Under the pieces are notes generated by a model. The model saw only the letters and a list, made by a program, of their open reading frames with translations, did not search any database and was not told the DNA's origin. Positions 2,294 to 26,211 of a DNA stretch of 26,211 nucleotides are shown here, one piece after another (the first letter of the stretch is position 1; every line of letters begins with the position of its first letter). The translations under genes were made by a program, and so were the position numbers. This DNA comes from a virus (taxonomy: Duplodnaviria; Caudoviricetes), in IMG/VR virus record IMGVR_UViG_3300005512_000287, positions 1 through 26,211 of that record; one strand, written 5' to 3'.

Positions 2294-5200
2294 TTAGAAC
2301 TCAAATTCATATTCAGACAATCCCTTCTTTTTCCGGGATTCTTGTATCGCTCTGATCTGCTGCTTGCTCGGAATGTATGGGATATACTTACCTGACATCA
2401 GCGATCCGATCATCTTCTGACTTACACCTATCTCACGCATTGCCGAGACGATCTCTTTGTCAGTCATTCCGAACTTCTTAAAATCAGTTGCAATCTCACG
2501 CATCTGCTTCCATGCACCCTGGCGCCGTTTCTCACCTTCCTCAGAATACATCTTGATAATGTTCTCATCAGACTCATTGCGCATCTTTCGGGTGGCCCCA
2601 CGCATCGATAGTTGGTATGCCTCTTTTGTGGTCCATAGATTATTTTTCATGGCCTGCTCAGGGATAAATGTCTGCTCACGGACACCACGCACCAGGTTCT
2701 TAGCCTCCTCAGCCACTGTGTACCTCTTACCGTACTCATCTACGATGCCATCCTTGGCTTTCTGGATTCTGCGAGTCTGATACCCTACCCCCTCCCAATA
2801 TTCGCCGGTGTCAGCTTCGCCATCACGTATCTTGACAGGAAGGAACTCAGATATATCAAAGTCACCTGATTTAATGTCAGCCTTTATCTTGAGGATGTCA
2901 GGTGCCATAGCCCACGGCGATATTTTAGACATCGTGAATGATATTGTGTTTGCAATATTATTGATTGCCTCATCATTCTCAGTCCACACTACCTTACCCA
3001 TCTCATCCTTACCGCTATACAGGGCAGATGCTAGACTTGCAAGCATAGATGGATCGACATAGGGCTGGAGTGCCTGATACGCTGCGGCCCCTACCTCACC
3101 ACGGCTTAATGCCTCAAGAGGTTCTGATATAGTAGACCAGGGATTGGTGTAACTCATATTCACATAACTGATACCCTTTGTCCCATTCTCAGTCTCAACG
3201 ATGCCGTAAGGTATTAATTCTGCATATTCTTCCCACGGAGATACATATTTCTGCATTAGCTCGGCGGTCTCAGATATTGACATTCCCCACTCGTTAAATG
3301 GTTCACCGTTGCCGGACATCTGGTTATACATTTCTACGAACTTTTCCTTGCCACCATAGTATGCAGCAACAGATGCAAGCCCTAAAGCACGAGAGAACGA
3401 TCTCTTGCCAAGGCCACTCGTCCCGGCCATCTCTTTTGCTGCGAGTTTAACCGTGTTGCCAGCAGTCATTACAACAGATGTCGGGAACGCTGTAAACGTA
3501 CCAACGAATGACCCAAGGCCACTATTACGCATCTTGTCATTCCAACGCGGTAAATTCCCGTAGTTGGGGTATATCAGTCTGGTGTTCGCCATAGCCTTAT
3601 CTTTTGGATACCCCTTAGACACTTCGTTAAGATAGCCGTACACCTTCCACACATCATCCCAATACTGATAGAGTTTCTGCGCCTTATTGTTAGGCAGGTT
3701 TGATGCAAGTTTATCTATCTGCTTCAATGATAATTTATCAAAGTCCTTACCGAACAGCCCGAAACTTTTCCGTGTTAGGTCAGCAAGGTCAGACGTGATT
3801 ATGTCGGAACTCAGCACACCGTTGGCAATAAGCTCACCAACCAGATCCTCATTCTTTGCCTTGCGAGTCACGATATCAAGCGCCTCTGCCATCTTGTCAA
3901 CTCGCCAGTGCCCATTTGCAGCGGCGAATCCAATGTTACCCACAAAGTTTCTGATATGAGAGTTGGGGTTGTAAACAGTTTGCATACCTTTAAGGGCGCC
4001 ATTTGCCTTCATCAAGAGTTTGTTTATCTTGCCCTGGGATATAGTCGCTTCCTGGAATTCTTTCGCAAACTCTTTCGTGGTGTACATTGTCTTTTTCTGC
4101 CCGAGGCCCATGTCTATTGATACTGGCGTGTCAAAATTGCCCTGTTTCTGTATAAACATGATTGGGTCATCACCACCGGCCATGAACTTCTCGACCAGCA
4201 TCCTGTTGGTGCGAGACTGTTCAGCCTGAATCACCATATTCTGTGCCGTGAATACAGCGTTAGCAACTGGGTCATCGAACTCACCCATTAATTTCCGTAT
4301 CTGGACGGGGATATGCTTGCGCTTTTTCAGGTTATTGCGATTAACAGATCCGAGCCATTTAGTAAAATTACCCATAGACTCAGATGTCCAATCCTCGGTT
4401 GCAAGCGCCTTAACCTCTGCATCGATAGCGTTAGAAAACATATCCTCTGTAATTTCTTTTCCAGGATGATCTATTTCAAGGCGCCTCATAATGTCATCGC
4501 CATAAGCATCATTAATAAATCCCCTGGCACCTTCAATCACATCAGTATCTTTTGATACCTTGTCCCACCACTTTGGATCATAAAACTTTTTGTATGACAT
4601 CTTTAGATAGATGCCCATATTCTCATCGACAGTCGCTTCCAACTTTTTAGAGAGTATCTTGCCATCCTGCTTCAACATGGTTGACAGATTATCGATGTAC
4701 TGGCGCATATTATCAACAGCATCTAGAACCTCAGCCGGTAATAGCTGGTCAGCACGATATTTTTCTCTGAGCTCTGGGGAGCCAAGGAGTGCATTGATGA
4801 CACTGCGGTCTTGGTCTTTTATAGCTTTCTCGAATTTCCTGGCATTATTCCTTATCTTGAACATGCCAGCCTTAATACGAGACTCCTGTGATTTTGTAAG
4901 ATCACGCAACTTGTTCCTGATGCCAAACGAGTTCACCCACTCTTTAGCATTATCAACAGTTTTAACCCATCCAGTTCTCGTGTCAGGAGAAGCAGGCTTC
5001 AAGTCTGGTTTCTGCTGCGGCAGGTCTTTAATATCTATATTGGGTTCAGCACCCCTTGGCGCCTCACCGACCCTCCTGCCATTATAGTCAGCAAGCGCCT
5101 CTTCGTATGAGACTTTCTCCAGGTCAGCCTTATTCTTTATAGTCAATGTAGATGCGGGTGTCTTCTTAGGCGGAATGATCTCTCCAAGAACGCGATCAGC

Positions 5201-21078: not shown

Positions 21079-21119
21079 ACGGGCACAATTTACCAAAATA
21101 TGTAGGAAAGATGAAAGAG

Positions 21120-21142
21120 TAAATGAGAATCATTCTCATTTA
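21120..21142. promoter_or_regulatory. Perfect Fur-box-like palindrome upstream of the packaging/structural operon
   Basis: TAAATGAGAAT-C-ATTCTCATTTA, a perfect 11-1-11 inverted repeat. Confidence 0.75.
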
Positions 21143-21152
21143 TGATATACAC

Positions 21153-22854: not shown

Positions 22855-23068
22855 AGAAATTATTTAGGTATTGGGGATGTAAGATAGCAAATAGTATGGC
22901 TTCAAAAATACGAAGTAATATACGAAATAAAATAATCTACACAATATTTTATTTATAATAATTGTAATATAGGTTTTTTTGGGATTTTGATTTTTTCAGG
23001 GTTTTGGTCTGTGGGGCAGGGATGTTATGCAGAATCGGGCATACCCCCAGGGTCCCTACCCCCCCCTA

Positions 23069-23091
23069 TAAATGAGATCGAGTCTCATTAT
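23069..23091. promoter_or_regulatory. Fur-box-like site
   Basis: AATGAGA-TCGAG-TCTCATT, with the same arms and N5 spacing as the 21120 palindrome. Confidence 0.5.
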
Positions 23092-23233
23092 CACCTGGTT
23101 AGCCCTGCTATCCACCTTGCAAAATGTACAGAATCCGCACAGTGATGGCGTAAGTGCATGTAAATACTATAAGCGCGAAGTTTTGACACAACTCCGACAC
23201 TATCGAGGCGACAAAATGAAGGGGGGCGACCCA

Positions 23234-23273
23234 ATGTAAAGTATACTTGACATCATGTAAAGTATACTTGTCA
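23234..23273. repeat. Tandem pair of 19-bp near-palindromes (21-bp period), candidate operators
   Basis: ATGTAAAGTATACTTGACA at 23234 and ATGTAAAGTATACTTGTCA at 23255. Confidence 0.75.
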
Positions 23274-24464: not shown

Positions 24465-24528
24465 ATTTTCTAAATGCGAACGAGTCTCAGTTGCGAATTT
24501 TCTAAATGCGAACGAGTCTCAGTTGCGA
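24465..24528. repeat. Perfect 32-bp tandem duplication containing a degenerate Fur-like box
   Basis: ATTTTCTAAATGCGAACGAGTCTCAGTTGCGA at 24465 and 24497. Confidence 0.9.
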
Positions 24529-24529
24529 C

Positions 24530-24554
24530 AAAAAACCCACCGGTTAGGGTGGGT
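24530..24554 (-). terminator. Rho-independent terminator
   Basis: Minus strand ACCCACC-CTAACC-GGTGGGT followed by TTTTT. Confidence 0.7.
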
Positions 24555-24596
24555 CGAATCCGATATATCGGATAGGTTGGTGTGATATCGGATAGG

Positions 24597-24743
24597 TTAG
24601 GGGGCGTCGCTATCCATAATATCGATAAGATTATTGTGGTCCCGGATCTGATCCCTTGTGTGCATATTCACAACCTGGGCGATAAACAGCATGATAACGC
24701 TTGCCAGGGCTAACACAGTCATTGCGATCTCACATTTACTCAT
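24597..24743 (-). CDS. 48-aa membrane protein (start revised to MSKCEIAM)
   Basis: SD GGAGG before ATG 24743 and one hydrophobic helix. The upstream extension in the ORF track looks non-coding. Confidence 0.6.
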   Translation of the reverse strand: MSKCEIAMTVLALASVIMLFIAQVVNMHTRDQIRDHNNLIDIMDSDAP

Positions 24744-24973
24744 ACATCCTCCAAAATTTGGGGAGTGACCAATGTATCTCGTGCAGGACACTCCCCTGTT
24801 TTCCAAGTTCCTCGTTTCGAGGTTCGCGCCATCACAACTTTTTGTGCAAGCTGACACTCCCGAACGGCATTGGGGTGGTTCTTGCTGTCTGATGAGGCTT
24901 GCGCCATTTCTACGCTCCGTCCGTTCCATAGCCACGTAACCGCTAGTTAAAGGACACACAACCGATTAAAGAT

Positions 24974-25100
24974 AATGTGCCTGTGGCTAATTTTTTACCG
25001 CTATAATGTGCCTGTGGCTAATTTTTTACCGCTACAATGTGCCTGTGGCTAATTTTTTACCGCTACAATGTGCCTGTGGCTAATTTTTTACCGCTACAAT
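24974..25100. repeat. 4 x 31-bp tandem repeat (iteron-like)
   Basis: AATGTGCCTGTGGCTAATTTTTTACCGCTAY at 24974, 25005, 25036 and 25067. Confidence 0.95.
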
Positions 25101-25392
25101 ACCCATTTTGCAGAATATGACCACAATAAAACCCATTATGCGGGCTAATGTCCAATATATTACCGCTTAGGCGCATATTCTGGGCTAATATCCTAAATGT
25201 TGCACTTTAACATAAGTAATGTTACTGTGCATATTAAAAGTTATTACTTCCTGCCGTGCGGTTGCTATTAATTGGCGTATTATCATAATATTCTGCCATT
25301 CAAATATCATTTGGTTATGTAATTCCATTTACCCGGCCTCGCTCTTGTCTTTGGCCTTCTCCGATCCCTTCATCGAGGACTATTCGGCTACT

Positions 25393-25442
25393 GGCTAACT
25401 CCGATTTGAGGCCGACTAAAGCGGCCTAAATCAAAGTTATAT
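25393..25442 (+). mobile_element. attC-like recombination site 1 (50 bp)
   Basis: R'' GGCTAAC - 5 nt - L'' TTTGAGGC (one extra base) - CGACTAAAGCG - L' GCCTAAA - 5 nt - R' GTTATAT. Confidence 0.7.
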
Positions 25443-26188
25443 CTACACCAGCCAAACTCAGAATAATTCATGCTGTACCGTGTTTAGCTGAAATCTCTTG
25501 ACACCATCATTGAAATATTCTTCGTCAATTTCTATTATATCCAAATCAAACCCCTCTTTATGGCAAGCAATCGCCGATGAGAAACTACCGCCGTGGGTGT
25601 CGATGATGCGTTGACCCGCAGTTGCGTAGTTCTTTAGGAGCCAACGATATAGGGCAACGGGCTTTTGGGTGGGGTGGATGCGCTCTTCTTTTTGGCTCAT
25701 GTTCTGTTGCAACATCCCAGCCCATTTCCATTCAAACTTCCGTACTGCAGTATTGAAAGATGTCCACGCCAACTCGCAATCAGCAAAATCAGATGATCCG
25801 TTCATTTTATCCCAAACGATAAAGCAGGGTGACGGTCTTAAATAGAAATAATTGCCCCCCCATATTATCTGATTTTTAGATACACGCATGAGCCAATCAA
25901 AATATATTTTGTCTGGAGTTTCCCTATCCCAATCCTTTACAGTATATTCAATCTTTCGCGCAACACCACCACCCCTGCCCTGAGATTGGTTGTTTATGTT
26001 TATCCCATACGGCGGGTCAACTATTGCAAGATCATAGGCATTATCGGCGGTAGCTTTCATCAGCTCCATGCAATCACCAAGATATGCTCGGATTAAAGGC
26101 TGGTGAGATATAACCACGGCTTTAAGCTGACCACCATCGTTTATTGTTTTACTCATGTTTATTGCCTCCGCAGCTTAAGCCGTTCACG
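25437..26188 (+). mobile_element. Integron-like gene cassette (752 bp) carrying the methyltransferase in inverted orientation
   Basis: Runs from G|TT of site 1 to G|TT of site 2. The left core GTTATATCTACACCAGCC is complementary to GGCTGGTGAGATATAAC at site 2, with one bulged base. Confidence 0.7.
25458..26156 (-). CDS. DNA methyltransferase, N6-adenine/N4-cytosine, beta class
   Basis: Catalytic DPPY near the N-terminus, IIWGGNYF, HPTQKPVALY, C-terminal SAM-binding DTHGGSFSS; SD GGAGG. Confidence 0.95.
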   Translation of the reverse strand: MSKTINDGGQLKAVVISHQPLIRAYLGDCMELMKATADNAYDLAIVDPPYGININNQSQGRGGGVARKIEYTVKDWDRETPDKIYFDWLMRVSKNQIIWGGNYFYLRPSPCFIVWDKMNGSSDFADCELAWTSFNTAVRKFEWKWAGMLQQNMSQKEERIHPTQKPVALYRWLLKNYATAGQRIIDTHGGSFSSAIACHKEGFDLDIIEIDEEYFNDGVKRFQLNTVQHELF

Positions 26189-26194
26189 TTATGT
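26108..26194 (+). mobile_element. attC-like recombination site 2 (87 bp) containing the RBS and start codon of the methyltransferase
   Basis: R'' ATATAAC - CACGG - L'' CTTTAAGC (one extra base) TG ... CA L' GCTTAAG - CCGTTCAC - R' GTTATGT. Confidence 0.7.
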
Positions 26195-26211
26195 GGTCTC
26201 GTTAATCTTTC

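Follow-up and report, generated by a model that had tools for sequence, protein, structure and literature searches.

A DNA methyltransferase gene lying antisense between integron-type attC sites in a podovirus-like phage

Background

Integron cassettes are understood as promoterless genes obliged to face the Pc promoter. At the right-hand end of a viral contig, a DNA methyltransferase gene lies between two attC-like hairpins and runs antisense to both of them. Does this locus represent an integron cassette and, if so, which way does it face and which integrase would move it? The initial annotation, made from the sequence alone, had recognized the two hairpins and proposed a phage-borne cassette of a divergent system, and it had overlooked the strand of the gene.

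Results and discussion

Phage setting of the locus

The window, that is, the whole 26,211-nt viral record analysed here, is a linear contig estimated to be 41% complete (about 59% of the genome is missing). Its leftward-running block of morphogenesis genes is that of a podovirus-like phage, with a large terminase, a P22-type portal, a capsid, a tail and SU10-type adaptors; small leftward genes come next, then a stretch rich in repeats and finally the attC/methyltransferase locus (Table 1). The contig ends 17 nt past site 2, and a single complete cassette is visible. Small ORFs left of site 1 (25185-25328 and 24597-24959) gave no family match. A search for tyrosine recombinases (PF00589) gave no match anywhere on the 26,211-nt contig, attI side included, and the absence of an integrase reported in the initial annotation is thereby supported.

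A contig from an independent metagenome (L076) matched window positions 24536-25811 at 1272/1276 nt (99.7%), with site 1 included and the junction identical, and related phages (L072-L074; terminase identity 82-83%) stopped short of the cassette region; none of these contigs is a relative without the cassette that spans the locus. Comparison of the terminase with 301 genomes of the phylum of G003 gave 2 distant matches (44% and 34%), which are uninformative on the host.

Several repeats were observed in the window. A 31-nt unit occurs in four head-to-tail copies in non-coding DNA left of site 1 (24974-25100) and is present in L076 too; it is possibly related to an origin or to packaging. A 32-nt unit, in two exact tandem and two weaker copies (24465-24528, 23063-23094 and 21114-21145), sits upstream of the small-gene and terminase blocks, with a similar motif in L072 before a candidate gene for the terminase small subunit, and is possibly an operator or late-promoter element. 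A palindromic motif with two 19-nt copies 21 nt apart (23234-23273), between small leftward genes, is possibly a repressor site. Terminator-like hairpins numbered 7, as compared with 3.5 in shuffled sequences.

Table 1. Positions of features at the attC/methyltransferase locus, in window coordinates
Feature	Position	Strand	Remarks
Terminator-like hairpin	24534..24555	-	Could end the leftward transcript; consensus match only
Terminator-like hairpin, weaker	25130-25146		Consensus match only
attC site 1	25393..25442	+	50 nt, minimal loop; 10/10 stem pairs; 24.9 bits, E 2.7e-4
Unpaired bases of site 1	25408 (G), 25415 (A)		Top-strand bases; crossover between G and TT at 25436/25437
Left cassette end, non-coding	25436..25453	+	Pairs with 26098-26114, 17 bp, one bulge
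Predicted mobile cassette	25437..26188	+	752 bp, from TT of the site 1 core to G of the site 2 core; carries site 2
Orphan N6-adenine/N4-cytosine DNA methyltransferase	25458..26156	-	232 aa; PF01555, E 2e-12
Extended inverse core of site 2	26098..26114	+	Minus strand there codes for methyltransferase residues 15-20
attC site 2	26108..26194	+	87 nt; 10/10 stem pairs; 42.7 bits, E 2.3e-8
Unpaired bases of site 2	T (one of 26121-26123), A (26130)		Crossover at 26188/26189
Shine-Dalgarno-like GGAGG	26165..26169	-	Within the loop of site 2, with 8 nt between it and the ATG
Start of the following unit (resident phage DNA or a further cassette)	26189..26211	+	Cut off by the contig end

Two attC sites with canonical bulges

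A strict attC scan gave 2 matches in the window; 200 order-3 Markov copies made from it had 0, as did 928 kb of viral DNA around relatives of the methyltransferase. A covariance model built from 22 bacterial sites, with the window sites left out, picked just these two sites, on the plus strand only, the next best score being 8.4 bits; covariation was detected in 10 of the 16 pairs of the model stem, the input sites having been picked for pairing. Chance occurrence of the sites is excluded. Their coordinates and box layout agree with the initial annotation, as does the observation that within each site the R boxes pair only over TAAC/GTTA, and the check suggested there, an attC covariance model combined with a pattern scan of the contig, found only sites 1 and 2. 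Rfam returned nothing at gathering score, and patterns made from the exact sequences of sites 1 and 2 gave 0 matches.

Both sites have the order R''-5-L''(8)...L'(7)-spacer-R', with right spacers of 5 and 8 nt and R' boxes GTTATAT and GTTATGT in sites 1 and 2, respectively, and they conform to the attC hairpin pattern of R''(..YAAC), a 5-nt spacer, L''(8)...L'(7), a 5-8-nt spacer and R'(GTT..). The bottom strand of site 1 folds as DNA with a z of -4.9, and site 2 folds modestly only (z -1.7). According to the available text of PMC5027507, an attC site has two or three unpaired bases in the L'' arm, the last being a bottom-strand T at position 23 or 24, with a 6-bp stem separating the first of these from the last; the first is usually a G on the bottom strand, and attC sites are 57-141 bp long. 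Careful examination revealed in each window site a second unpaired base, a top-strand A at position 23 (25415 and 26130), which had been overlooked in the initial annotation. The bulges of both sites thus lie at positions 16 and 23 of the L'' arm, with a 6-bp stem between them and a bottom-strand T as the last. The usual first base and length are departed from, the first bulge being a bottom-strand C in site 1 and A in site 2, and site 1, at 50 nt, falling below the range. By the rule quoted, the arm that carries the bulges identifies the plus strand as top strand and the minus strand as bottom strand, the one that recombines. Either site would be expected to react with IntI through its folded bottom strand.

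Since the bulges have canonical positions and spacing, both sites are ordinary IntI-type sites, and the divergent system proposed initially on the basis of the G and T first bulges and the short length of site 1 finds no support, as these features were found in ordinary sites too. Two scans of viral contigs, each with a two-arm pattern, yielded 154 loci, and 129 of these contained 295 distinct sites. C was the first bulge in 246 of the sites, G in 32, A in 10 and T in 7, and G was the first bulge in 11 of 18 bacterial loci; both sets were chosen by our own patterns, and the counts show occurrence, not frequency. Sites of 48-53 nt made up 15/295 in the viral set, the search pattern having been made to catch short sites.

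The left-arm pattern of site 2 matched 96 genome loci, of which 14 had a full site and 82 did not. Full sites of this type were found in Marinimicrobia, Deferrimicrobium, Methylomirabilota and others, and an IntI (TIGR02249) scored above the cut-off in 3 of the 5 searched genomes with such sites; in L254, L255 and L258 sites of this family adjoin IntI. In viral DNA this degenerate pattern matched 3 loci, all of them rejected as chance matches in coding DNA. It was also noticed that in L255, L256 and L258 the integron integrase and the attC sites are on the same strand, with the array beyond the 3' end of the integrase gene, a geometry that resembles the inverted integron-integrase group mentioned in the available text of PMC4889954.

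Cassette boundaries and the translation start inside site 2

The bounds of the cassette follow from the bulge polarity and from the crossover between the G and the TT of the core (PMC5027507 and PMC9892861, available text), and they support the unit that the initial annotation had placed between the two attC sites, 25437-26188. The core of site 1 and the inverse core of site 2 are complementary across the gene, as expected of a gene cassette, with 9 + 8 = 17 pairs and one bulge, just as first described; this pairing is identical when read on either strand and gives no polarity. The description of the unit as the last cassette holds in transcription order only, since the bulge polarity makes it the complete cassette nearest to attI. 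An adjacent integrase would then be expected on the left and within the window, and none was found there.

The methyltransferase has DPPY at residue 47, ahead of the SAM-binding DTHGGSFS at residue 186. In the usual layout a top-strand ORF ends before its attC; here a minus-strand ORF starts inside site 2, with its ATG (26156) in the loop and codons 1-14 running down the left arm before the core. Other genes of the same phage carry Shine-Dalgarno-like motifs, and the GGAGG in the loop probably serves as the ribosome site. With the ribosome-binding motif, the ATG and 14 codons all inside site 2, the unit brings its own translation start. The mRNA over site 2 folds no better than shuffled sequences (z 0.4).

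On the right, positions 26189-26211 leave one minus-strand frame open to a TAA in the R' box, a weak sign with 6 codons only. On the left, the nearest candidate for a cognate core of site 1 is a 7-mer at 23098; three such 7-mers occur on the plus strand, for which chance suffices, and a long cassette reaching from 23098 to site 1 was dismissed on this ground. As site 1 is without a convincing partner core to its left, the cassette that brought it is degraded or lost.

Reversed polarity in viral arrays

The viral loci contained 153 cassettes in 64 loci. Strand calls by longest ORF at the 295 sites in these GC-rich loci (156 antisense, 49 sense, 42 unclear and 48 at an edge) were noisy and were therefore replaced by a Pfam test, applied to viral cassettes only, on the 75 longest. 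Pfam matches were found in antisense ORFs of 18/75 cassettes, from 15 loci and including 11 DNA methyltransferases, and in sense ORFs of 0/75. In bacterial arrays the longest ORF upstream of the site, a cruder measure than the Pfam test, was sense at 17, antisense at 1 and uncallable at 6 of 24 sites. Among 119 long viral sites, the loop held a Shine-Dalgarno motif with a start codon on the bottom strand in 53 and on the top strand in 3; among 20 bacterial sites the corresponding numbers were 1 and 3. Viral contigs commonly have the reversed layout, which was rarely met in the bacterial arrays examined.

Pairing of at least 9 bp was found across the cassette in 97/163 adjacent pairs of viral sites, as against 9/163 within sites, and the window agrees with this viral rule. 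An IntI-like gene was present in the examined flanks of 4/154 viral loci, one of which is a class 1 resistance integron. On another contig, that of a temperate phage, an intact IntI (TIGR02249, 429 bits) is divergent from an attC array (L271:3600-7414); the genes of this array appear antisense, and an excisionase-like gene and a phage integrase adjoin. Viral stretches matching the short-site pattern alone number about 270 by estimate, as compared with 17 phage CALINs (clusters of attC sites without an integrase) in the available text of PMC9892861.

Relatives of the methyltransferase

A search with the methyltransferase gave 3300 matches at E <= 1e-60 among 8000 scored candidates, the best among them having 76% identity. 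Relatives at 76% are without the 14-residue N-terminal extension, and among those at 65-67% some carry an extension peculiar to themselves; in GenBank phages the matches are confined to the methyltransferase gene. End repeats of the form GTT...AAC of at least 9 bp were found around 20 of 47 distinct relatives.

Two relatives sit in comparable units. In L093, a relative of 52-53% protein identity has different neighbours (replication-initiator-like and DnaB-like, by ORF reading), and its cassette ends match those of the window at 15/18 positions at the non-coding left end, the counterpart of which is the 3' end of the L093 cassette, and 14/17 at 26098-26114. At both of its ends (L093:2291-2434 and 3069-3130) the cores are ATT/AAT, not GTT/AAC, the stem has 14 bp and three bulges, and the cassette is docked at the upstream gene's stop codon; it is either a decayed cassette or one of variant site specificity. 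In L139 (2154-2928), a 46% relative lies antisense between two near-identical attC-like sites of 57-58 nt, upstream of a terminase-like gene and with its ATG just outside the hairpin.

Model R1, run over 100 loci around methyltransferase and terminase relatives, gave 3 weak matches only, and therefore most of the cassette-borne relatives use other hairpin types. Relatives in L012, L015, L020, L036, L049, L118 and others were seen to start inside hairpins of about 127 nt with 10-bp end repeats. These hairpins are a second type, undetected by the two-bulge scan and by model R1.

Origin and mobility of the cassette

The reading that we favour, and hold to be probable while leaving it appreciable room for doubt, is that of a reversed integron cassette in a podovirus-like phage, a 752-bp unit inserted, and excisable, by an IntI that is likely the host's. 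The folded bottom strands would recombine between the G and the TT of the core, with a circle being released or inserted, and an IntI acting in trans, most likely that of the host, would have inserted this circle and could excise it. The available text of PMC9892861 reports that IntI1 recombined 5/6 phage attC sites, the bottom strand better, and gives anti-restriction as the usual reading of orphan phage methyltransferases; the present one would likely protect the DNA of the phage against restriction by the host. Transcription of the gene would come from the leftward operon of the phage, not from an integron Pc promoter. The attI side would be the far end of the transcript, where new cassettes could be appended without parting resident genes from the promoter, and the same reversed cassettes would be silent if placed in a bacterial array. 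The temperate phage with its own IntI (L271) displays this geometry, with the attI side at the far end of the transcript. The reversed layout likely lets phages swap anti-restriction genes via the integron integrase. Movement of the cassette as a unit is suggested indirectly by the end repeats around relatives of the gene, by the L139 locus, by the ends shared with L093 and by the pairing across viral cassettes. Against the favoured reading stand the lack of a cognate core for site 1, the shortness of that site, the unusual first bulges of both sites and the modest folding of site 2; neither an empty site nor an excised circle nor a cassette-free strain was seen, and a phage-encoded integrase retains some probability in a genome 41% complete, as the temperate phage has its own IntI beside a reversed array.

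It is unlikely, yet deserving of some weight, that the cassette is a frozen relic, built by the integrase of an ancestor, brought in as a block by phage mosaic recombination and now immobile, in which case site 2 would have been retained since the start of the gene sits in it. The absence of an integrase from the contig, the identical junction in L076 and the loss of the GTT/AAC cores from the L093 cassette are all in keeping with this, and erosion of the unit that brought site 1 keeps such a reading alive; yet site 1, although non-coding, retains its two bulges and 10/10 stem pairs, and the 17-bp end repeat, non-coding as well, has stayed intact. Still more doubtful is an integron of the phage's own, with an intI in the unseen part of the genome that shuffles a longer array continuing rightward. 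The contig lacks about 59% of the genome and stops 17 nt past site 2, and L271 offers a precedent in its IntI divergent from an attC array of antisense genes; however, both integron layouts met in this work put intI on the attI side, which here is the left, sequenced and empty side and argues against an adjacent phage integrase, and IntI-like genes were near only 4/154 viral loci, the class 1 resistance integron included. It is very improbable that the system is a divergent one served by a non-IntI recombinase of its own, or that the hairpins have a different function, for instance as terminators: the G and T first bulges on the top strand, the short site 1 and the many methyltransferase relatives behind longer hairpins missed by the two-bulge scan and model R1 speak for it, but the two-bulge rule holds for both sites, both match a bacterial family that occurs next to IntI, their bulge letters and lengths are within the range of other sites, neither was called terminator-like, and chance is excluded.

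Taken beyond the favoured reading of this one locus, phages may run a mirror-image cassette economy, in which canonical attC loops would act as bottom-strand translation-start modules and the IntI of the host, or sometimes of the phage, would add counter-defence genes at the far end of an operon, expressed at once and silent in a bacterial array; the case for and against so general a scheme seems to us evenly balanced. The window alone is one cassette, and the weight rests on the pattern across viral contigs. If the scheme is true, polarity would tell phage from bacterial cassette pools, and paired cassette and non-cassette versions of a gene would offer a direct way to study cassette making. 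The origin of cassettes is an open question, on which a gene family having cassette and non-cassette members with inherited ends provides a handle. Chromosomal arrays have been cast as stores of anti-phage defence (10.1101/2024.07.02.601686, available text); if phages routinely carry reversed, methyltransferase-rich cassettes, the same recombination system would serve counter-defence too.

Comparison with known systems

The nearest counterparts are the phage CALINs of Qi et al. 2023 (PMC9892861, available text), which have at least two phage attC sites and no intI, as here. By their definition, which asks for two or more attC sites in 3 kb with no intI close by, the locus is a CALIN, its sites being 665 nt apart on one strand with the right side unseen; a complete integron, with intI and attI beside the array, was not found in the 26,211 nt, attI side included, of a genome 41% complete. 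Their cargo also includes PF01555-type genes, with five methyltransferases, e.g. that of Polaribacter phage P12002L, and an anti-restriction role was proposed. In that text the cassettes of two phages are called same-direction, typical of bacterial arrays, and divergent sites are given for a third; genes antisense to the sites or starting inside them are not described in the main text ('antisense' and 'opposite' each occur 0 times). Nor was a description of reversed phage cassettes with starts in attC loops found in the literature searched, which lay mostly outside subscription papers and supplements. Phage CALINs with methyltransferases are thus already published, and the reversed layout with starts inside attC appears new within that literature.

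Bacterial integron cassettes (Nivina et al. 2016, PMC5027507; Cury et al. 2016, PMC4889954; available text of both) share with the window the R''/L''/L'/R' boxes, the bulges at 16 and 23 with the 6-bp stem, the crossover between G and TT of the core and the pairing cassette ends, and the site 2 family occurs beside IntI in Marinimicrobia and in the arrays of other bacteria. They differ in that the window gene occupies the bottom strand and starts in the loop of an attC site, in that no intI, attI or Pc was seen, and in that site 1 is under the quoted length range and the first bulge on the bottom strand is C or A, not G. The window holds canonical two-bulge sites of an IntI-linked family, here in a phage whose genes carry Shine-Dalgarno motifs. 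With the orphan phage N6/N4 DNA methyltransferases (PF01555; phrog_67 and phrog_23224) the enzyme has the DPPY and SAM-binding motifs in common, and it differs from them in its 14-residue N-terminal extension, which is encoded by the attC site.
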